Source of the DNA: Octopus vulgaris
Taxonomy: Eukaryota
Length of the DNA stretch: 64,000 nt
Assembly: GCA_951406725.2 (NCBI GenBank)
Contig: OX597820.1
Location: 122,884,001 to 122,948,000 of the forward strand
Direction: 5' to 3'
The notes below the pieces were generated by a model, which worked only from the letters and a program-made list of their open reading frames with translations, ran no database searches and had not been told where the DNA came from. Within the stretch, counting starts at the first letter, position 1, and each line of letters begins with the position of its first letter. Shown one piece after another: positions 1,921 to 55,907 of this stretch. The position numbers and the translations under genes are program-made.

Positions 1921-2810
1921 CTTTACGCTAAATGTTAATAATAAAACAAACGCTAATTTTAGTTAACTCCGAGCAAAAATTTCTCTCTTTTGTTCTATTT
2001 ATTTGACGTAGATCCTTCCACCTCTTATAGACATACAAAATATGCGTGCCTCTATGACACAGAAATTTGCTATTATTTTGCTGTAATACACGTCACTATC
2101 TACCTAGCGACTTGTCTTGTCGAGTAACATATATCATTCTTTCCACAATTCATCTGTCTCTCATCTGGAATACAGCAATAATAGCTTGTAGTTACTCTGG
2201 CACAAGTCCATATTCTAAGTTCATAAACCGTATCTACCGTTGTACAATCAAGTTTTTCATCGGTGAATAATCAACTGCCTCACCACCAGTATTGGGGATG
2301 TCTGCCTTAACTTCTCTCAACATCGTATAACCGCTGGAAGCTGTGTCACTGAATGTCAGTACCAGTTACTATAATATAACCATATACATCTCTGACACAC
2401 TGACACAGCAAATATTCTCGGCTTTTGCTTCATCATAAAGACCACCTCCCAAAGTCTCTTTGTTTAGTGGATCGGTCTGATCACAACCTGATGAAGACGA
2501 CAGCAACCCCTCTCCTCCACAACCTTCCGTGGCACAACATCACCACCGGGCCGAAGCGCCATACTTGCCACAAAACTTCCAAATGAAGATAATCTCTAGC
2601 TTAACTCAAGTCTTGCGACTAAACAACAGAAATGTGTATACAAAATCTGAACGACGCCCCACCCCCGCCATTCCCCGCAGACAATCACCTGGAGTGAGAA
2701 TACAATGTCTCTAAAGTAGAAAACATAATTTTTTACAAATCTTCATTTATCTCCACCCCAACCCCCCTTTTCCTTTTTTTCTCACCCTCACACAAGTTTA
2801 CCCAAGTTGT

Positions 2811-3225
2811 TTCTTCATTGCCCTCAAGGGGCTAAACACAGAGGGGAACAAACAAGGACAGACAAAGGGATCAAGTCGATTACATCGACCCCAGTGCGCA
2901 ACTGGTACTTAATTTATCGACCCCGAAAGGATGAAAGGCAAAGTCGACCTCGGTGGAATTTGAACTCAGAACGTAACGGCAGACGAAATACCTATTTCTT
3001 TATTACCCACAAGGGGCTAAACACAGAGGGGACAAACAAGGACAGACATAGGTATTAAGTCGATTACATCGACCCCAGTGCGTAACTGGTACTTAATTTT
3101 TCGACCCCGAAAGGATGAAAGGCAAAGTCGACCTCGGCGGAATTTGAACTCAGAGCGTAACGGCAGACGAAATACCGCTAAGCATTTCGCCCGGCGTGCT
3201 AACGATTCTGCCAGTTCGCCGCCTG
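2811..3225 (-). mobile_element. SINE family B with tandemly duplicated 3' portion
   Basis: tRNA-like head (rc GGCGGCGAACTGGCAGAATCGTTAGC...GAGTTCAAATTCC), a ~185-bp internal duplication, and a 16-bp TSD AGTTTACCCAAGTTGT at 2795-2810 and 3226-3241. Confidence 0.9.
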
Positions 3226-25557: not shown

Positions 25558-26469
25558 TATACGTTATTGGTATTTCACTTATGTTTATGAGAAGACGCAA
25601 TAAATTTTTCTGGATCTTTCTTCCATAGCAACAACGAGATTGCATTATTACTTTCCGCATGAACAAAATTAATTACAGAATGGGAAGTAATGTAAGAGTT
25701 TATTATTAATCGAAGAGAAAGAAAGTGGCGGAGAGGCAGAAATATGAGAATGTCCATTGAAATGGTTTGCAAGATTTAGTTACGGCCGTCTGCGTTTCTT
25801 AGTTCAAATCCTAACTAGTTTGACTTCCACTCCTTTCATGGTCGATAAATTAATATAAACTTGATAGAGTTCTACACCAGTGTCTGTGTGTGTAGTGGTA
25901 AGTCAATGACTATATCATTAATAAAAGGAGATAAATACGGTGGGAGGCTGGCCGAAGAAGTAGAAGTTTTTTCTTTTACCTTACACAAGTATGTAGGTTT
26001 GTATTTCCACGATCAAAATTCAAATCCTTCTGGGATTAGCAGCCTTATTTCGTTCAGTTATCCATAATTTAATTGCCATAATTTAATAGCCAAGCATCCA
26101 TCCATTTAGTTATACAGAGTTCGATTACAGATATCTGTGAACGCATGATTTCTATCTCAAATTTTATGTAAAAATGAATTTTATTCAACCGAGAATCGAA
26201 ATCGTATAGATTTCTTGCTCTGCAGCTCTCATTTAGTTTATTAGTTTACTTTTGATAGGGCACAAACTGTCGCTGATCTCGAAAAAGGAGAAATAATTTA
26301 TATTAAATCATCTCTGAGAGAAGTATAAACAGCAGCAATACGGAATCGTAACATATAATTGCCAACCTCGTGCGGTGTCCTATACAGGACAGTACTATTG
26401 ATGGGAGCTGGAAAAAGCATGAAGTATTTTGCGAGTGGAATGAGTTTTCTTTACTAGCTGGTGATTAAC

Positions 26470-26514
26470 ACACACTGAAGACGGGTAACCATCCAGAAAC
26501 TCGAGTCAATGTGT
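26470..26514 (+). ncRNA. Minimal type I hammerhead ribozyme (candidate)
   Basis: ACACA-CTGAAGA-cGGGT aacc ATCCa-GAAAC-tcga-GTC-aa-TGTGT. Confidence 0.65.
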
Positions 26515-27472
26515 ATCCTGTAAGGCTAGAGATGGGAGCGATGACCTCCCCTCACAAATACTAATCGGGCACAGAATGCGTATCGTTAGCCAGCTGGAAG
26601 AGATGTCTTTCTGAGGCTATAAACGTCAGCTAGAAGAGATGGCTTCTTCTGTGTGTGTGTGTGTGTGTGTGTGTGTTTGTGTGTATTTGTGTGTGTATGT
26701 GTGTGTGTGCGTGCATGTATATATGTATCTATTAATACGTATGTATATTGTAAGCTCGTATTTCAGGATTTATTCTACCTCACTCTTAAAAATAGACCAC
26801 AATACTTCGGAGAAATTTAGCCAAGAAATGTTCGTATCGTAGCTTGAGTTCAACGCGGCTGCGAACTATTTTACACCAGATAAACGATATTAAGTACCTG
26901 CTCCACTGGCATTTAACACGCTTGTGTAAGATAGCATAAACTGTAAAACTGTGATTAATTTAGAAAGGAAACAATTAGCTAATTGTTGAAGCATATGATT
27001 ATATTTTAGACTCAATGAAGATAATACACAAAATTGGCTGAAGTATGTGAAATCATTTGCTTTGAGAGAAAAAATATACGTCTGTCTAACATAAAGGATG
27101 CTTGCATGTCAATGACGTCTATTTCCATTTATTTATATTCATTGATAACTTAGACTTGTGGCTCTTGGTAAAAAAAAAAAGACGATGAATATCGGCAAGA
27201 GAAAGAAATTACTAAAACAAAAAGAATAACACATAAATAAGGATTTCTTTCTATTATTTCATCTAAAAATAATGAAAACAATGATAAGCTTAAAAGAAAA
27301 AGAATTGTCCAGCCTTTCGCCTGGCGATACATTTACGATGTAGCAACGTTTATCATGATATTGTTTATTGTCTGTCATTCAATGGAAACGTAGCATCTGG
27401 GTGGGCGATATTATGTTGTATTTGGTGGTGCCTTACTGCTTCGAGAAGAACGAGTTCAATGTATCTTTTGTT

Positions 27473-29857: not shown

Positions 29858-29969
29858 AAGGAGCTTCTACAGGACTAGAACTGTTTCATTCAAAAGAAAT
29901 CATCAGGAAGCTTCCTGACTATTTCTTTTGAATGAAACTGTTCTAGTCCTGTAGAAGCTCCTTCTATAA
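29852..29969. ncRNA. 118-bp near-perfect palindrome of two back-to-back hammerhead motifs (PLE-type inverted pLTR)
   Basis: Minus strand 29862-29912: AGCTTC-CTGATGA-tTTC tttt GAAt-GAAACAG..CTGTA-GAAGCT. The plus-strand copy (29909-29959) has core CTGACTA. Confidence 0.7.
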
Positions 29970-36458: not shown

Positions 36459-37466
36459 GCTTGACATCATCAAGCACAGCAACATAAAAATCTTTGCAGA
36501 TGACTCCAAGCTACAGAAGGTCATAAATGAGGCGAGTGACCGGACATGCCTTCAGTCAGATCTACTGGCTGTTATCCAATGGGCAGAAAAAAACAATATG
36601 CTGCTGAACGAGGATAAATTTGAGCTAATCCACTTTGGAAAAGAGGATGCCCTGAAACTCCCATACTCCCTTCCTTCAGGTGAAACTCTCGCGGCGTCCA
36701 ACAACATCAGAGACTTGGGAGTAATTGTGGACAACACAAGCTGGGCCACTCATATAAACACCAAAGTTGACATGGCCCGCAGAATGTGTTCCTGGATTCT
36801 CAGAACTTTCCAGTCGAGAGATATCCACACCATTATCCTTCTCTTCTCCACTTTTGCCCGACCCCACCTTGAATACTGTTGTCCACTGTGGTCTCCCCAC
36901 ACAATACAAGGTATCATAAAAGTTGAAGCACCTCAAAGGGCAATCACAAAAAAGATAGATGGCATGACAGGCCTCGACTATTGGGGTCGGCTAGAAAAGC
37001 TAAAACTCTATTCTCTCCAACGTCGTCGTGAGCGCTACATCATCTGCATGATGTGGAAAATATTCCATCAGCATTGCCCAAATGATGTTGGCATCACCTT
37101 TAAGCTACATCCAAGGCTTGGGCCCCGTGCCATCCGCCCAAAACAAAAATCGCACTCTCATCTCATAACAACAATACGGCACAATTATTTCACCTCAATT
37201 GGCCCCGCTCTCTTTAACATTACACCAAAACACATTAAAACAGAAACTGACCCTATAGGGTTCAAGAAGTCTTTGGACAGATTCCTTCAAGAAATCCCGG
37301 ATAAACCCCCTACACCTGGATATGTCTCTGTAAACAATAACTCTCTACTTGAGTGGGCCATAGTGCCCAAATTCTGACTTGAAAGACTTCACCAGGTGGT
37401 GCTATTAAGTTAGACATGGCCTGGGCCAATAATGGCCGAAACCTATCAAAGTATCAAAGTATCAAA

Positions 37467-37468
<2 letters not shown>
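36457..37468 (+). mobile_element. 5'-truncated CR1-type LINE with open RT C-terminal frame (36457-37377) and (ATCAAAGT)3 tail
   Basis: [55 protein letters not shown]. Tandem 8-mer 3' tail. Embedded in (TA)n on both sides. Confidence 0.93.
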
Positions 37469-37517
<49 letters not shown>

Positions 37518-37551
37518 CATATATATATATACATATATATATACACATATA

Positions 37552-37583
<32 letters not shown>

Positions 37584-37590
37584 CATATAC

Positions 37591-37621
<31 letters not shown>

Positions 37622-37768
37622 CATATATACATATATATATATACATATATACATATATATATATACATATATATATACATATATATATATATACATATAT
37701 ATATACATATATACATATATATATATATACATATATATATACATATATATATATACATATATATATAC

Positions 37769-37806
<38 letters not shown>

Positions 37807-37841
37807 ATACATATATATATATATATACACATATATATAAA

Positions 37842-37919
<78 letters not shown>

Positions 37920-37966
37920 GAAAAAAAAAATACAAAGACGAATGTGAACAATTAATGATACATTTT

Positions 37967-38417
37967 ACGATATTGATAAGAAGACCATCGCGGTTTCGCC
38001 TCACAGTGAGACCCGGGCAGAAACGTTAGCACGGCGGGCGAAATGCGTAACCGTATTTCGTCTGCCGTTACGTTCTGAGTTCAAATTCCACTGAGGTCGA
38101 CTTTGGCTTTCATCCTTTCGGGGTCGATAAATTAAGTACCAGTTACGCACTGGGGTCGATATAATCGACTCAATCCGTTTGTCTGTCCTTATTTGTCCTC
38201 TCTGTGTTTAACCCCTTGTGGGTAGTAAAGAAATAGGTATTGCGTTTTAATGTGAAAAAGTCACTGTTCGTCTCACAGCGGGAGTGAGTCGAACAGCTTC
38301 ATTCTCATAAATTATTAATCAATCCATCAATCATACATCATTTGTTTTGCGTTCCCGTTTTGTCTTGTTTTGTCCCCTCTGTGTAATCAGGCCATTGTGC
38401 CTATAATAAAGAGAAAA
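37967..38417 (+). mobile_element. 3' end of a second copy of the Tx1-like element, interrupted by a SINE
   Basis: 37967-38015 plus 38236-38417 closely match 40031-40264. Confidence 0.8.
38016..38235 (+). mobile_element. SINE family B (5'-truncated)
   Basis: Matches the reverse complement of 2994-3215. Confidence 0.92.
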
Positions 38418-38434
38418 GGACTCGCTACCCTAGA

Positions 38435-40264
38435 TTTTTGTTGTTTATTGTGAGAAGGTGCTCGAAAGTTCGCGTGAGGCCGACGTTTGTCGGTGAAAGA
38501 AGAAATTGAAAATGAAGAGCTACACTAAAGTGACAGCGGAAGACCCGGAAAAAGAGAAATTAAGAAAGATAACACTGAAGTCGTTGAATTGGGACCCTGA
38601 AAAGATGAAGAGATACTTGAGCAAATTAGAAATAGAAGCAACGGATGTGAAGCTTGTAATGTCGGAGGAGAAAAAGAAAATGTTAAGGGATTCAACAAGA
38701 GTATACAGAACATTCTCCAACGAATCCAGGAGGATTGAAATAGCACCGGAATTTCAAATAGAAACAATGGTATCGTGCTGTATGGATAGAGTGGTTTTCA
38801 TAAATAGAGGAAGCCAATACGGCACGATAAATATTACATTTGAAAATGTGGAGGCGGCAAAGAAGAATGACCAAGTGATAGAAGGAAATAGGCGAACTCT
38901 CATTCCCGACAAACCAGGAAAAAAGTTTGGGAAAATTAGAGTTGGAAGAATCCCACCCATAATAGAGCCCGAATGGGTAATAGTGGGGATCTTCGGAAAG
39001 ATCTTGAAGAAAGGAAGTACAAAGTTAAACGTTCTAACAGCGAGTAAATCGCAATGTTTGAATTTTTGGGGTTATGAAATTGAAGCAGTTTGCGCTATAA
39101 CCGAAGAATACTATTAGGAAATACCGGAAACGGTAGAATTACCGACCGGTGAAAAGTTGGATATTGTGCTACAGGGAAGACCCCCAAAATGCTACATGTG
39201 TGGAATAAGGGGGCATATGTGAAGGAAATGCCCGAATACAGAAGTAGAGAAAAGGTTGCAAACAACGGTGGAAGAAAAAGCAGCCGATGAAGAGAAGATG
39301 GAGAACAATAATAGAACGAATATGGTGAAGAGAAGGGAGAGAGAACGTAAGAAGTCACCAAGTTTGGAAGAGGCAAACAGAGTAAAGGAGCGGCAGAGAA
39401 TACAACTTTTCAGAACGGTAACACCGAGGAGCCAACTATGGAAGGGATAGAGAGAGCGATGGAACTGCAAAACGAAGACGAAACAGAGCGAGAAAATTTA
39501 GAGTTGTGTGAGCTAAAAGATAGAGAACAAATGGAAGAGACGCATTTGAAAAAGTCACCAACTTTGGAAGAAACGGAAAAAAGTAGTGGAATGGCAGAGA
39601 ATATAACAGACCAGAACGGTAACACTGAGAGAATATATATGGAAGATGTGTTGAGAGCGATGAACCTGCAAAGCGAAGAAGAAGTGAGGCAGTGGTTTAG
39701 GCTCAAAGAAAAAGAACAGATGGAAGAGAAGTATTTGCAGTCGGGAGAAAATTGAGATACACAAACGGAGATGAACGAAGCAGTAGACTCGAGAAGAGAA
39801 ACACAAGAAAAGAAAGAGAACGAGAGGAAAATGAAATGTAACAACAATAAATGTGGGAAAAAAACGTAGACGGTAAGTATAATTACGAGTGTAAACGCAA
39901 CTAATTGTTTTAAAACAAATATGAATTGAACTGAGAATTGAACTTGTGTTATTTGTCTGTGAAATTTAATATATATAAAAAAAGAGGAAAATGTAACGCT
40001 GGAAAAAAAAAAGATAAAATAGAAAAGGAAACGATATTGATAAGAAGACCATCGCGGTTTCGCCTCACAGTGAGACCCGATGGTATTGAGAATTAATGTG
40101 AAAAACTTCACTGTTCGTCTCACAGCGGGAGTGATTCGAACAGCTTCATTCTCATCAATTATTAATCACTCCATCAATCATACATCATTTGTTTTATGTT
40201 CCCGTTTTGTCTTGTTTTGTCCCCTCTGAGTAATCAGGCCATTGTGCCTATGATAAAGAGAAGA
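38435..40264 (+). mobile_element. Non-autonomous Tx1/L1-like retroposon carrying only a decayed ORF1 (RRM-like plus zinc knuckle)
   Basis: ORF from 38512 read through stops: GTINITFEN..KIRVGRIPP..IPETVELPTGEKLDIVLQGRPPKCYMCGIRGHM*RKCP (CX2CX4HX4C), then an E/K-rich tail. No RT or endonuclease. Ends (A/G)ATAAAGAGAA. 17-bp flanking near-duplication. Confidence 0.7.
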
Positions 40265-40275
40265 GGACACACTAC

Positions 40276-40321
40276 CCTGGACTGACGACGGGCAAGACCC
40301 AGAAACATGCATGTCTCCAGG
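40276..40321 (+). ncRNA. Type I hammerhead ribozyme, intact core
   Basis: CCTGGA-CTGACGA-cGGG caaga CCCa-GAAAC-atgcat-GTC-TCCAGG. Perfect 6-bp helix I, palindromic ACATGCATGT helix III, GUC cleavage after 40315. Confidence 0.85.
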
Positions 40322-40596
40322 TTGCTAGTCCTAGCTGGTGGGGGTGCTTGCCTCCCCTTCGCAAATATAAGGACACAGGAAATGTGCCAAAGCCGAAAGG
40401 AGGCGTCGATGCTTCCTAGGGCTAAATAGCGGTGCGGTAATTCCCTTTACGGGACTGTCACGTTATGCTGACTTTATACAACCACTCTCTCTCTCTATAT
40501 ATATACACATATATAAAGGAAATAGCAGTCCTTTGGCTGCTATTTCTAAAATTTTTCGGTATGTGGTCAAGCAACTTGTTGCTAAACCCTTATTGT

Positions 40597-40651
<55 letters not shown>

Positions 40652-42396: not shown

Positions 42397-43235
42397 GCAA
42401 TACCCAATGAATACACTGGACCCGGAGGGATTGCAATCCCAGAGGCACAATCAGTGCGTGACCTGGGTATTCACATGAGTGATGACGCGACCTTTCATGT
42501 ACATGTTGCTAAACTGACAATGAAATGTAGACGGCTGGCTGGATGGATTCTTAGAACCTTTAGAACAAGAGAACAAGAAACCATGATGGTCCTCTGGAAG
42601 ACACTTGTCCTAAGCCACTTTGACTATTGCTCTCAGCTATGGTCACCATCCAGTGTCAAGTTGATCACAGAACTTGAGGCGATCCAACGAAGCTACACAA
42701 AGAAGATAGCCTCTATGCAGAATGTAAGCTACTGGGAAAGACTCAAGAGATTAAAATTATATTCCCTGGAGCGTAGGCGGGAAAAGATATGCCATAATAT
42801 ACATCTGGAAGATCCTGGAGGGAAGTGTCCTGAACTTTGGCATCGAGAGTTACGCAAATGCCAGAACTGGGCGCCACTGCGTGGTGCCTAGGACTCCAAA
42901 CCTGCCATCAAGATGTAGGACAAGATTCTGTGATAGCCTGGGCTTCCGAGGCCCACAGCTCTTCAATATCCTCCCGAAGAACCTGAGAGACCTGCATGGG
43001 GTGGATACAAATGTCTTTAAAATGAAGCTGGATCTCTTCCTGTCAGGTGTCCCAGATGAACCAACTTCACGGCAGGAGGGGCAGATGAGGGCAGCTGCAT
43101 CGAACTCTCTCATGCACCAAATAGCAGTTGCTAGAAAGCCTCCATGAAGTGAAACCAAGTATGAACACCAAATGGCGGTGCCCCAGCATGGCCACAGCTC
43201 ATAAGCTGAAACTAGAATCAATCAATCAATCAATC
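42397..43235 (+). mobile_element. 5'-truncated CR1-type LINE (second subfamily) with (ATCA)n tail
   Basis: [48 protein letters not shown]. One frameshift. Starts in (TA)n. Confidence 0.92.
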
Positions 43236-44849: not shown

Positions 44850-47340
44850 TAAAACAATAACTCACATAGAAGCGAAATCTAGCACAACAACTCAAGGGTC
44901 AAAAGTATCCCGTATGTGAGGTGACATTTCGTAGAAAAACTTTGAAAGTGAAAGGTTTTTGTATTAAAAAGTACGTCAAACTTATTTAGCCCAGACTGGA
45001 CGGAACTATTTAATTTATGGGACTTCCCCATCAATATATTTTGTTATAATGTAAACGGCTCTTATGCCAGTTCAAATAAGGCGTCGGAGGAGTTACAAAA
45101 GAAATCAAAAATGGTTTTTCCTTATGTTTTTTCTGAAGAAGTAAGTAGGTGTAAAAGTAAAATTTCAAGGGAAAGGAAACGCTGTGCCGGTATTTAAACC
45201 GAAGCGAGTTGTTCCTTTCGCGGCGTTGAATCAAGTCAACAAGGAATTGGATAGACTTGGAGAGCTTGGAGTTATAGAAAAAAATTGATTATTCAGAATG
45301 GGCATCACCACCTGTTTATATAAAGAAAAAAAAATACAAGTATTCACTGGCTTTTCAACAGAATTGAACGAATGTTTGATGACATACAATTACCCATTAC
45401 CTAGTTTGAAGGAAATTTTTGCGAAACTCAATGGAGGAAAATGTTTTTTAAAGTTGGACTTGTCGGAGGTGCATTTACAGTTCCAAATCGAGGAGGAATG
45501 TTCGAAATTATTAACGATAAACACCCATAAACGTTTATATAAATCCAGTCGGCTTCCTTTTGGGATAAAGCTGGTACTTAGTATTTTCCAACAGGTGATG
45601 GTCACTATGCTTGCGGATATGGATTTCGCTATAGCTTACTTGGATGATATACTCATAAAAAGTGCGTCTGGAGGCTAGCATGAGGAACATATTAAAAAGG
45701 TCTTTGAAAGACTAAAGGAGTATGGATTTAAACTTAGCGAGGGAAAAGGCAAACTTTTCATGCCAGAAATAAAGTATCTAGGGCTAGTTATCGATAAAAA
45801 TGGTCGCCGGGCAGATCTTTCAAGCCCCACTGCAATACAAAATATGCCTCCCCCGGAAAAATATTACAACGATACAAACATTCTTCGGGATCGCAAACTA
45901 TTACCAAACATATATACCGAATATACATGAGCTAAGAGCAGCCCTAAACAAACTATCGGAATAAAGACGTTAAATGGTATTGGTCGAAGAGGTGCCAAAA
46001 AGCTTTCGAAGAAATTAGAAAAGTTTTAACATCGAAACTGTCATTAACGCACTTTGATCCAAATTAAAAAATAGTAGCAGAATTAGATGCCAGCGAAAGT
46101 GGTGAAGCGGTAATTTTACACAAGTATGAAAATGGTTGCCTAAAACCCCTCGCTCATGCTTCACGTTGAAAAAGCTACAGCCAAATTGGGAAGGCGGCAT
46201 TAGCCATTATTTTTGCGGTGAAAAAATATAGTAAATTCATACATGGAAGGAAATTCAGTCTGCGGACAGATCACCACCCATTGTTGTTTATTTACGGATC
46301 GAAAAAATGTATCCCCACCCAAACAGCCAAACGATTGCAGCGCTGGGGGACGATCCTGCTAAATTATGACATTAAGATGGAATTTCTACCATCGGAAAAA
46401 ATTGGGGCATGCAGATGGGCTGTCACGATTGATACCTAAATACAATGAACCGTTAGAGGACGCAATAATAGCGGCATTAAAAACTGAAATCGAAATATAT
46501 GATATACTCTGCAACGTGGTACGCGAACTACCTGTCACTTGAGAGGATATAAAAACTAAAGCATAGAAGGATGTGCTAATAATAAGAATGAAAAAAATAG
46601 TGAAGTCAGAAAGAAATGCAAAAGCTCATGTGTCCGAGAGTACCACATTTACGAAATGGTATTCGATATGTGGTGACCTACATATGTACTCTCAGAGGAG
46701 GCATACCTGTTACTTTGCTAAATCGTATGCTAAAAGAACTCCACATGGGACATCTAGGAATCGCGAGAATGAAAGTACTGATGAGGAAAGAACTGATGAA
46801 AGTACTGATGAGGAAAGTACTGATGAAAGTACTGATGAGGAAAGAACTGATGAAAGTACTGATGAGGAAAGTACTGATGAAAGTACTGATGAGGAAAGTA
46901 CTGATGAAAGTACTGATGAAAGTACTGATGAGGGTCGAATATGGATCAGGATATTGAAAAAATGGTGAAAGCCTGCAGGGATTCTACCCTGGCAGCGAAA
47001 GCACCACCTATAAAAATTCAGCCCTGGCCCAAGACTGATCCAGATTATATATAGACTTTGCAGGACCGTTAAATGGAGGGTATTATCTAATAGTTGTGGA
47101 TAGTTACACAGAATGGCCGGAAATATGTAAATGTAGGAAGCCAACCCCCAAAATAACGATGGAATTTCTGGACGATCTTTTCGAGTTATATGGCGTCCCA
47201 GACACTATTGTGTCTGATAACGGAACATAGTTCACGTCGAAGGAATTTAAAACCTTTTGCAAATTGCATGCAATGGAGCATATTTCTAGTCCGCCTTACC
47301 ATCCAAGGTCGAATGGGACATTTTGTAGACTCGGAAAAGA
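44850..47340 (+). mobile_element. Degraded Ty3/Gypsy pol (RT, RNase H, integrase)
   Basis: YPLP..IFAKLNGG..KLDLS, RLPFGI, AYLDDILI, FSLRTDHHPL..RLQRW, LHMGHLGIARMK, IDFAGP, VSDNG. Order is RT-RH-IN. Confidence 0.92.
46768..46934 (+). repeat. 27-bp tandem repeat expansion inside the integrase zinc-binding region
   Basis: (ATGAAAGTACTGATGAGGAAAG[A/T]ACTG) x ~6, reading MKVLMRK(E/V)L. Confidence 0.9.
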
Positions 47341-53255: not shown

Positions 53256-55907
53256 CAAAAGAAGAAGTGCAGAGATTTTGGAATAAAATCTGGGCAGAAG
53301 AAAAAACACACAACGAAAAGGCCCCCTGGATTGACAGAATATCTACAGAACTGGACCCCTTAGAAGAGCAAAAGTGGGAGGGTGTCAAGGTAGAAGATAT
53401 AAGATCTGCTCTCAGGAGGTCAAGCAAATGGAAGTCTCCAGGAAAGGATAAAATTCCTAACTTCTGGCTGAATGCCTTCCCAGAGAGCCATGAACTGCTA
53501 ACAGAACTGTACAATGATGTTTTGCAACACCCTAGTAGGATGCCTCCTTGGCTAGTTAATGGGTTAACATTCCTGCTTCCAAAAAGTGAAGAAACAAATG
53601 AACCAAAAAACTATAGACCCATAACCTGCTTAACAACTATGTACAAAACACTAACATCTGTCCTGACGGAATATACCTATAGTTTTTTAACAGACAGCAG
53701 CATATTCCCTAATGAACAGAAAGGATGTAAACGTGGATCCTACGGCTGTAAAGACCAACTACTCATCAATAAGATGATCTTAGAAGATTGTCACAAACGA
53801 CACAAAAACTTATCAATAGCCTGGATAGACTATAAAAAGGCTTTTGATAGCCTACCACATAGCTGGATTAGGAAATGCCTTGAAATGTATAAGATAGCAC
53901 CAACTCTGCGAAACTTCTTGACTGTAAGTATGAGATCATGGAGAACCACACTAACTCTGAACAGTGACAGTGAATCCCTAAATGCTGGTGATGTAAAAAT
54001 TTCGTGTGGCATTTTCCAGGGTGACTCACTGTCACCACTCCTCTTTTGTTTATCCTTAATACCTCTCTCAAAGCTGCTCAATGATGCGCAGTACGGGTAT
54101 AAAATGTTTGATAAAAATATAAATCATCTCGTTTACATGGATGATTTAAAGCTTTTTGCAAAAAAATGATCAACAACTCAAGGGCTTACTAGCGATAGTC
54201 AAACAATTCAGTGACGACATCAGAATGCAATTCGGCCTCGATAAATGTGCAAAGGCTACCTTTATCAAAGGAAAAATGACAGAAACATCTAACGTTAACC
54301 TTGACCAACAGAATGTCATAAAAGAACTAGACCCAGCGGAGAGCTACAAGTACCTAGGGATAATTGAAGGGAACGGAATAAGGCATTCAGAGATGAAGGA
54401 AAGGATCAGGAGAGAATGCTATCGAAGAGTGAGAGCAATACTCAAGACAGAGCTGAATGCAAGAAACAGGATCGAAGCAATCAATGCATTAGCTATACCA
54501 GTCGTGACTTACAGTTTCAATATTGTTAACTGGTCAATTACTGAAATATGTCAGCTCGACAGAAAAATAAGGAAACTGTTGACAATGCATAGAATGCACC
54601 ACCCTAAGGCAGATACAGAACGACTCTATCTGCCAAGAAAAGAGGGAGGCCGTGGTCTTTTGCAACTGGCAATAACAATGAAGATTGCTACAATTGGCCT
54701 AGACACCTACCTGAAAAACTCTGAGGACTGGATGTTAAAACTTGTCTCAAAACATGAAAACAAGAAAGTATCATACTCAGTCACAAAACAGGCAAAGGAA
54801 TATCTAAGTGAATTCCGAATACAACCAATTTCGGAATTAGAGATAGATATACAAGAAACAAGCACAGAAAAAGCTAGGCGCATGAAAACCCGTGCCAAAA
54901 CTGCGGCCTTAGATATCCTGAATAATAAATGGCAAGAAAAACCTCTCTATGGCAAATACCCAAAGAGAGCGAATAATGCAGATATCGACAAAGCCCTGAC
55001 CCATCAATGGCTAATGGCCTCTGGCTTAAAATCTGAAACAGAGGGGTTTATCATAGCAGCTCAAGATCAATGCCCACCAACAAGAAACTACCAGGCCAAC
55101 ATATTAAAGATCAGAAGCAGTCCAACCTGTCGTGTATGCAAGCAACAAAATGAAACCATTGACCATGTGGTCTCCAAGTGCAGTCTTCTAGCGCCTACAG
55201 AGTATCTCAACAGGCACGATAGAGCTGCACAATATATTCACTGGGTAATCTGTAAAAACCTGGATTTGCCCCATGAAAAAACTGGTGGGAACACAAACCA
55301 CCCCCAGTGCTTGAAAATGACCACATCTCACTCCTCTGGAACTTCACCATTCAAACTGACAGGAAGATAGATGCAAATAGGCCAGACATCATATTGAAAG
55401 ACTTCAAACAAAGAACATGCCTCCTCATTGATATGACTGTCCCAATCGATATAAACGTATCTGTCAAGACCTACCAAAAACTGAGCAAATATAAAGATCT
55501 TGAAATAGAAATCAGCAAAATGTGGAAGCTGAAGACTAAAACAATACCTGTTGTCATAGGTGCCCTGGGAATGATAGCAAAAGGGGCTGATAGCTACCTA
55601 ACTCAGATACCAGGAAACCCAAAAATGGCAGAAGTTCAAAATATAGTGCTCATGGGAACTGCTCATATCCTACGCAAAATACTCTCTATGTAATCTCAAG
55701 GTTTAAAACAAACATAATTTTCGGTTTAAAAAAAAAAAAAAAAAACACCTTTTTTTTAGACATTCATTAGTACAACATCCCCACCCCCCAAATATATGGC
55801 ACACTAGGCATAACAACAACATGAACTTCCAACCCTGTTGTCTCTTGAGGTCTCTGGGTGAGACTTGGAGCCAACTTGTACAAATATAAAGCAAAAGTCA
55901 AACATAG
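53256..55907 (+). mobile_element. Dong/R4-clade LINE (5'-truncated): RT, CCHC and restriction-like endonuclease
   Basis: SPGKD, NYRPITCL, WIDYKKAFDSLPH, GIFQGDSLSPLLF, YMDDLK, CRVC..ETIDHVVSKC, RHD, RPDII..IDMTVP..KYKDL. Only two frameshifts, at homopolymer runs. Flanked by (TAA)n. Confidence 0.95.

Follow-up and report, generated by a model that had tools for sequence, protein, structure and literature searches.

Organisation of the composite locus

The window analysed here, a stretch of 64,000 nucleotides (nt) of Octopus vulgaris DNA (contig OX597820.1, positions 122,884,001 to 122,948,000; contig C7 of the searched 2.8 Gb genome, label G000, in which related loci are labelled L002 etc.), carries a retroposon of a family designated A, which contains a single open reading frame (ORF1) and lies directly before a predicted hammerhead ribozyme belonging to another repeat. 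The comparisons below give good support to a preference of L1/Tx1-type elements, and of ORF1-only elements dependent on them, for the helix I arm of such hammerhead repeats. The element is flanked by two 17-mers which are identical at 14 of 17 positions, and both their coordinates (Table 1) and their identity are those given in the original prediction, which was made from the letters of the window. The right 17-mer supplies the 5′ strand of helix I and, as had been proposed, continues into CTGACGA at 40282, the sole CTGANGA word within 37901-40600. The 3′ untranslated region (3′UTR) is present twice, with 37967-38015 corresponding to 40031-40079 (100 % identity) and 38236-38434 to 40082-40281 (92 %), confirming that the 3′ end of another copy lies directly before the upstream 17-mer. 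This partial copy begins immediately 3′ of a (TA)n tract.

The ORF1 of family A is interrupted by stop codons at 39115-17 and 39220-22 and by a frame change further on, and no similarity to a reverse transcriptase (RT) or an ORF2 was found within the element. The predicted description of a decayed ORF1 with RNA recognition motif (RRM) and zinc knuckle and without RT is confirmed. As no RRM was found in ORF1 using Pfam, the RRM assignment is based on a predicted model of the 296-codon open frame of the L087 copy (12-sequence alignment; mean pLDDT 74.8), for which tandem-RRM proteins were the best PDB matches (best E 3e-4, with low TM-scores), and the CCHC knuckle (zf-CCHC) obtained a weak Pfam score. 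Four ORF1-similar proteins only were found, with the source label Octopus vulgaris. Full-length copies form inserts of 1.6-2.1 kb between duplications and contain ORF1 without ORF2, and other ORF1-only families share 26-50 % ORF1 identity with family A.

Table 1. Features of the composite locus, in positions of the window
Feature	Position	Strand	Remark
(TA)n microsatellite	37468..37912	.	Left flank of the entire composite
Upstream element copy, 5′-truncated, 3′UTR only, terminal letters AATAAAGAGAAAA	~37913..38417	+	Left edge by sequence comparison with L062
Short interspersed nuclear element (SINE) within the upstream 3′UTR	38016..38235	-	Missing in the downstream copy; further copies in the window; very high depth
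Left 17-mer (target duplication separating the tandem copies)	38418..38434	+	
Full-length ORF1-only retroposon, family A, 1830 nt	38435..40264	+	5′ end common to other full-length copies; 3′ end common to loci found with the 3′UTR
Decayed ORF1: two RRM-like domains, CCHC knuckle (~39191-39231), acidic tail	38512..39755	+	
Imperfect internal duplication in the ORF1 tail, ~200 nt, 70 %	39349..39737	+	
3′ tail: poly(A)-signal-like GATAAAG and short A-rich end	40145..40264	+	Weak similarity to the L180 3′ tail
Right 17-mer = hammerhead helix I 5′ arm of the target repeat	40265..40281	+	
Predicted type I hammerhead; predicted cut after 40315	40276..40321	+	Core boxes and pair changes; without Rfam match
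Right part of the ~355-nt hammerhead repeat, to the usual 3′ end of free copies	40316..40488	+	
(CT)n(TA)n right flank	40489..40512	.	

The hammerhead motif

By its anatomy, the motif behind the element is predicted to be a type I hammerhead. It combines the CUGANGA and GAAA boxes, a NUH triplet (GTC at 40313-40315) and helices I to III, with helix I formed by CCTGGA/TCCAGG, a 3-bp helix II (GGG/CCC) closed by C-A between the two boxes, and the palindrome ACATGCATGT as helix III. Sixty distinct matches to the core plus helix I were found across the collected loci, a few of them representing chance or other repeats. Twenty-one hammerhead rows from 20 chosen loci, which were preselected for pairing at helix I positions 1-5 so that only the variety of pairs is informative there, showed four to six pair types per helix I position. 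Positions 2-4 of helix II are paired in 19/21 rows and 13/21 have a perfectly palindromic helix III, while the helix II closing pair (10.1-11.1) is C-A in the window and in twelve rows, A-U or U-A in six and G-C in one. The claim that the duplication leaves the ribozyme intact applies to the core and to the proximal 6 bp of helix I, whereas the distal stem of helix I, which measures ~14 bp in empty copies, is reduced to 4-5 bp in the window.

Two further stretches of the window contain words of this kind. A different hammerhead-like motif at 29858-29963 (core 29906, minus strand) has a long helix III and lies in an inverted duplication between (TA)n tracts, with near-identical copies in L147 and L188. 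The array of 12/15/27-nt tandem units at 46769-46933 has many CTGATGA and GAAA words; helices were not seen in it, and it is probably not a ribozyme.

The target is a separate ~355-nt repeat

A ribozyme-bearing repeat had been proposed as the target, and such a repeat exists on its own. Searching with positions 40031-40480 returned 45 matches, of which 22 covered the full query and fourteen started at the 17-mer. None of the five fetched from the latter group has the element upstream, and four of the five show the repeat's own upstream arm. A unit of 355 nt occurs head-to-tail in L026 and is also found in L131. With this unit as query, for which 40 of 2418 first-look candidates were scored, the site is uninterrupted in 32 of the best 43 rows, and in many of them the next monomer follows. 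The empty-site hammerhead repeats foreseen in the original prediction are likewise represented by 21 exact matches to an empty-site pattern, against none in the control. The repeat makes up at least ~0.03 % of the genome (2418 candidates × 355 nt) and occurs in several subfamilies with differing helix I arm sequences, one of which has an empty, somewhat decayed copy in the window itself (26385-26624, plus strand, core 26475) with its native upstream arm.

Metazoan non-LTR (long terminal repeat) retrozymes are described as non-coding tandem repeats of 150-450 nt with one type I hammerhead per unit (PMC7229834; 10.64898/2026.07.22.740005; literature statements here and below refer to the available portions of the cited sources). 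The octopus repeat is non-coding, falls within the 150-450-nt range, is arranged head-to-tail and has one hammerhead per unit. Its unit size, tandem layout and non-coding nature thus fit the retrozymes, judged from the genomic sequence.

Independent insertions in the helix I arm

ORF1-only elements and elements with an apurinic/apyrimidinic endonuclease (APE) and RT occupy the same arm, 0-30 nt before CTGANGA. Among 21 matches to the 5′ end of the element, most of the full-length ones follow the left repeat half and the duplication, with the joint at the core boundary. A script applied to 28 chosen loci resolved 26 rows, in eighteen of which the element lies between two repeat arms, with duplications measuring 11-20 nt; seven are tandems and one, L099, represents a match to a distinct copy further upstream. 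No row was obtained for L038 and L198. In L130, L132 and L133 the copy's own arm variant stands on both sides (20/20). A second ORF1-only family, family B, is present in subfamilies with the arms GGACACGCTACCCTGGA, GCCATGCTACTCCAGA and GGTGATTGTCGTGCG (L086, L108 and L095/L096). The element in L141 is 5′-truncated and has a duplication, and the L087 element joins the target at an internal run of A, both as expected from priming at the target. The spacer from AATAAAG to CTGA measures 22-24 nt in eleven rows, 26 nt in three and 30-33 nt in eleven.

Tandem arrays were found in L083, L084, L085, L096, L143, L148 and L182. As a further observation, two to four different ORF1-only elements follow one another in L096, L148, L182, L083 and L084, with the duplicated arm alone between them.

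Target preference was also assessed from the 3′ ends. Thirty of 40 matches to a query consisting of the 3′UTR only were fetched, and the element continues into the 17-mer and hammerhead in 25, into the 17-mer and another element in three and off target in two. A pattern of the last 23 nt, covering families A and B and scored by eye (n = 28; ends with C at one fixed downstream position are missed), gave 17 hammerheads, five other elements and six off-target or unclear ends. The alternative of random 3′ flanks, named in the original prediction, therefore fails with either tabulation (28/30 and 22/28 on target, respectively), these proportions comparing with a target that occupies at least ~0.03 % of the genome. 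For a related 3′ end, also scored by eye (n = 59), 23 were followed by a hammerhead, fourteen by another element and 22 were off target or unclear. A pattern joining tail and core matched 36 times, against two in the control, and of 20 loci chosen by the repeat alone, two are filled at the core boundary (L226 and L227). The looser pattern AATAAAG-N14-34-CTGAYGA-N10-16-GAAA was rejected as evidence of enrichment and served for locus finding only, since the control count exceeds that of the genome (484 vs 349 matches). Targeting is a strong preference and not absolute. As composites have also spread as element plus repeat (see below), the tallies overcount independent events and should be read with caution.

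Of 30 matches to a sister L1/Tx1-type 3′ end, 15 continue into one shared non-hammerhead sequence. These fifteen cluster on C2:14.65-14.72 Mb and C27:22.8-26.3 Mb, and represent either a second target or segmental duplicates.

Autonomous relatives

Elements of 4.9-5.7 kb with both ORF1 and ORF2 lie directly 5′ of the hammerhead in eight of 20 fetched regions, and loci of this APE-RT helper type are L130-L133, L135, L137, L138 and L143. The 926-codon open frame of L132 contains APE (PF03372), RT (PF00078) and a C-terminal zinc motif (PF13966), all above the cut-off. Its RT is nearer to L1 ORF2p (E 2e-59) than to R2 (E 4e-25), these two being the only matches among solved structures. The L130-type junction lies 25-26 nt before the core and the top-strand end 6-11 nt before it, and all eleven L130-type 3′ ends found by pattern are on target. 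The helpers thus combine a target preference with duplications in the range of 10-25 nt, and their ORF1 aligns with that of the window family. The junction of the RT-bearing L180 and L181 is identical to that of the family-A copy L177, which suggests that this type of element is the likely helper of family A. The autonomous partner sought by the original prediction is likely to be found among the APE-RT relatives in the same arm, with an identical junction in L180/L181 and a modest similarity of the L180 3′ tail to that of the window; the L132 tail scored 67 against the window tail, within the shuffle maximum of 69.

An ORF1 with one or more RRMs and a CCHC knuckle is typical of the Tx1 clade. 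The RT tree (39 rows, for which 29 of 120 listed homologs were supplied; midpoint-rooted on the unrelated long branch L126 and read as an unrooted split) contains a branch with support of 95/97 which parts twelve hammerhead-flanked rows from L082 and the outside homologs. No named Tx1 element was found among the listed homologs, cluster members or atlas, and the tree includes none. The helpers belong to the L1 group, their likely Tx1 type being a tentative label; of the originally proposed Tx1-like affiliation, the L1-group part is borne out by the best PDB match of the RT. L082 was rejected as a helper, having its own 3′ end, being nested in a family-A 3′UTR and falling outside the hammerhead-flanked RT group. 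An affiliation to Ngaro/DIRS or LTR elements was also rejected, as unrelated elements use the same site and the relatives carry APE-RT.

Probable secondary movement with the repeat

The closest relatives of the window copy (L002-L013) are 5′-truncated or inverted, without the left half of the repeat at the truncation, and terminate at the repeat's two usual 3′ ends beside microsatellites. In a flank tree of 50 rows, from which L009 was removed as a duplicate, their right flanks group together in one clade of 12 rows, representing 10 loci (support 98/93). Given this shared clade and the missing left target half, it is likely that a single insertion was amplified as element plus repeat. The proposed two insertions at one site are matched by the tandem layout, with the qualification that the copies are not all independent. 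The layout of the window itself, comprising (TA)n, truncated copy, full copy, right repeat half and (CT)n(TA)n, is likely that of a tandem composite which has been moved. Among the traits described for Penelope-like elements are partial tandems, 5′ copies in inverted orientation and adjacent microsatellites (PMC8557442).

Near-identical composites with the same upstream neighbour are found at C17:67.3-79.7 Mb (L034, L036-L039, L041 and L045), probably through local duplication. A young family of GIY-YIG elements, many of which have 781-codon open frames and end in (TA)n, is dispersed over many contigs (e.g. L206, L211), and no hammerhead was found in the twelve loci read.

Other repeats in the window

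The 220-nt SINE in the upstream 3′UTR, which we take to be OK-SINE, occupies the same GGTATT site of the family-A 3′UTR in the window and in L027:1270-1500, with different SINE 5′ ends, and forms a tandem of 184 nt at 2810-3176. At its 3′ end the SINE is similar to the tail of the nested ORF2 element of L082, and this likeness suggests an L1/Tx1-type element as its partner. Other gene fragments of LINE (long interspersed nuclear element) reverse transcriptases lie at 36460-37380, 42400-43150 and 53378-53965.

Probable insertion mechanism and alternative explanations

The arrangement probably arose by target-primed insertion, driven by a helper, into the arm of helix I; a second such insertion would have used the duplicated arm, and the composite would then have moved as cargo of the repeat. 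The repeat occurs alone as head-to-tail monomers of several subfamilies, and both types of element are found in its arm between short duplications. From this state, the helper APE would nick the bottom strand at a distance of ~17 nt from the core on its 5′ side (in another family, ~26 nt), the helper RT would copy the ORF1-only RNA from a presumably shared 3′ tail, and a top-strand cut at the core or up to 14 nt before it would give rise to the duplication. The duplicated arm would then offer a fresh target, leading to tandem arrays. RNA from such a tandem may subsequently have extended across the hammerhead to the usual 3′ end of the repeat, which requires that it crossed the hammerhead uncut or as a religated circle, and a repeat-moving machinery, probably Penelope-like, may have copied it into the (TA)n tract. 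Truncation at 37913 during this step would account for the absence of a left target half in the window. The element likely benefits from a target that is multicopy, transcribed and dispensable, and whose core is regenerated downstream.

Several observations weigh against this interpretation. The variable junction positions are unusual for a single strict endonuclease site. The three differences between the 17-mers of the window have a p of 0.08-0.15 at a pairwise divergence of 6-8 %, and the left 17-mer resembles a variant common among empty copies. Off-target or unclear ends (6/28 and 22/59) are present, and the sister 3′ end lies mostly elsewhere, being clearly followed by a hammerhead in 2/30. 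The similarity between the L180 and window tails is modest (score 80; mean 45 and maximum 69 in 300 shuffles). The right flank of the window groups, weakly, with empty repeats (89/75), for which reason the window is likely to represent a different insertion from that of L002-L013. A Penelope-like ORF with the hammerhead repeat was not found among 12 of 148 GIY-YIG matches and the collected loci. As to the ribozyme, Rfam gave no hammerhead match at the locus at E ≤ 10 (for the whole window, microsatellite matches only were seen among the 150 of 200 matches listed), and free folding gave a minimum-energy structure other than the hammerhead (z -0.69), so that the hammerhead assignment is drawn from the core boxes and the pair changes across subfamilies. 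The G10.1-C11.1 pair, G-C in the single row noted above, is described as highly conserved by Cervera and de la Pena (PMC4209133), who also report that minimal hammerheads of Penelope-like elements are weakly active. Because of this non-canonical closing pair and the weak activity of such minimal forms, self-cleavage, and with it the proposed cutting of read-through RNA, is here a prediction only.

Part of this evidence could point to RNA, rather than mainly the endonuclease, as what chooses the target. The element would be co-transcribed with the repeat and cut by the hammerhead 51-60 nt past the element end, and the 3′ extension left by this cut, derived from the target, would base-pair with a new target that had been nicked loosely, thereby fixing the junction; the earlier and later steps would be those given above. 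The constant distance from junction to core across subfamilies with different arm sequences would be explained in this manner, as would the regeneration of the core and proximal helix I downstream of two-sided insertions, the identical junction of autonomous and ORF1-only elements and the resemblance of the two window 17-mers to different repeat variants; co-transcription with the target can furthermore strengthen specific integration (Kojima 2015, PMC4494074). However, L130, L132 and L133 duplicate the recipient's own variant on both sides, as plain target-primed reverse transcription predicts, and the closing pair of the hammerhead is non-canonical, its helix III is of the dimer type and its distal stem is shortened by the insertion. 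Such RNA guidance, although the main alternative, is considered unlikely. Less likely still is the absence of dedicated targeting, whereby an endonuclease with only a weak preference for A|G or A|C steps in DNA prone to hairpins would have produced the insertions and re-amplification with the transcribed repeat their excess. While the off-target ends, the several junction positions and the inflation of counts by composite amplification accord with this explanation, it is at odds with copy-specific duplications at at least 18 loci in several families, all within a 30-nt stretch of a 355-nt unit, with the 11/11 on-target ends of one autonomous type, and with the 2/20 loci picked by the repeat that are filled at the core boundary. 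The original prediction also named the reading that one ORF1 element without a target has the 17-mer and hammerhead as its own integral terminal repeat, of LTR or pseudo-LTR (pLTR) type. The 22 of 45 matches which span the 3′UTR and repeat, and the truncated copies that stop at the repeat 3′ end with Penelope-like inversions, would be consistent with it, but empty head-to-tail repeats are common, unrelated 3′UTRs, 5′ ends and APE-RT elements use the same arm, and the duplications match the local subfamily. It is largely refuted by the empty sites, is valid only for secondarily moved composites, and as a general explanation has very little probability. Target-primed insertion by helpers with subsequent cargo movement is thus preferred.

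Comparison with known systems

The closest parallels are target-specific Tx1 elements, which include Tx1L in Tx1D, Tx1-Mar in Mariner-N4_AMi, Keno in U2 snRNA and Kibi/Koshi in microsatellites, with dependants such as SINEU-3 (Kojima 2015, PMC4494074). Like these, the octopus helpers are non-LTR elements with APE and RT and a preference for a single site within another multicopy sequence, with duplications of ~16-20 nt, tandem copies split by the duplication, and non-autonomous riders with the same target. In contrast to them, the octopus target is the hammerhead helix I arm of a retrozyme-type repeat, retained across differing arm sequences, and the composites also spread as cargo of the target. 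With HAL1 (half-L1; PMC5753468) the ORF1-only elements share the status of non-autonomous L1-group derivatives with ORF1 only, but their ORF1 has two RRM-like domains and a CCHC knuckle, and they comprise several site-preferring families.

The target repeat resembles the metazoan non-LTR retrozymes in unit size, tandem layout and single hammerhead. Mobilisation by Penelope-like elements has been proposed for retrozymes, which have been linked to Penelope-like pLTRs (10.64898/2026.07.22.740005). The short palindromic helix III, partial tandems, inverted 5′-truncated copies and microsatellite neighbours of the octopus repeat are likewise shared with these pLTRs (PMC8557442, PMC4209133, PMC6765202), whereas the G10.1-C11.1 pair is mostly replaced and no attached Penelope ORF was found in the loci covered. 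R2, inserted in 28S rDNA, carries a hepatitis delta virus (HDV)-like ribozyme in its own 5′UTR (PMC6765202). It is similarly a site-specific element in a transcribed repeat, and its co-transcript is processed by a ribozyme, as is proposed for the octopus element. Unlike the 5′-end ribozyme of R2, the octopus ribozyme is part of the target and is situated past the 3′ end of the element.

In the literature searched, by titles and the beginnings of abstracts, a hammerhead repeat was not described as such a target; Repbase reports, Kojima and Fujiwara 2004, subscription journals, supplements and the unnamed 'satellite' targets in a figure of Kojima 2015 were outside the scope of this search. The words 'Tx1' and 'octopus' are absent from the available text of PMC7229834 and 10.64898/2026.07.22.740005, and ribozyme, retrozyme and hammerhead are absent from the main text, as available, of the 2026 octopus repeat annotation (PMC13282606).

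Implications

With these insertions, a ribozyme-bearing retroelement joins the known safe-harbour targets of site-preferring LINEs. Dependence extends over three levels, with the ORF1-only element dependent on a LINE, the LINE on a retrozyme, and the retrozyme in turn likely on a Penelope-like enzyme. The constant distance between junction and core, in spite of the changing sequence that is nicked, permits a direct test of whether APE site choice is governed by sequence, DNA structure or RNA guidance. It is furthermore suggested that retrozymes may transport coding cargo of ~2 kb, a point relevant to the manner in which they move. A bolder and doubtful, though not far-fetched, extension is that a LINE lineage is parasitic on ribozyme circles: it would home by position relative to the core of the retrozyme hammerhead and borrow the host's ribozymes to excise unit-length RNA from the transcript of the repeat, the cut 3′ extension would find the next target, and the ORF1-only dependants would also reach new sites within retrozyme circles by means of Penelope-like enzymes. 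If true, one element would make use of two unrelated integration systems.

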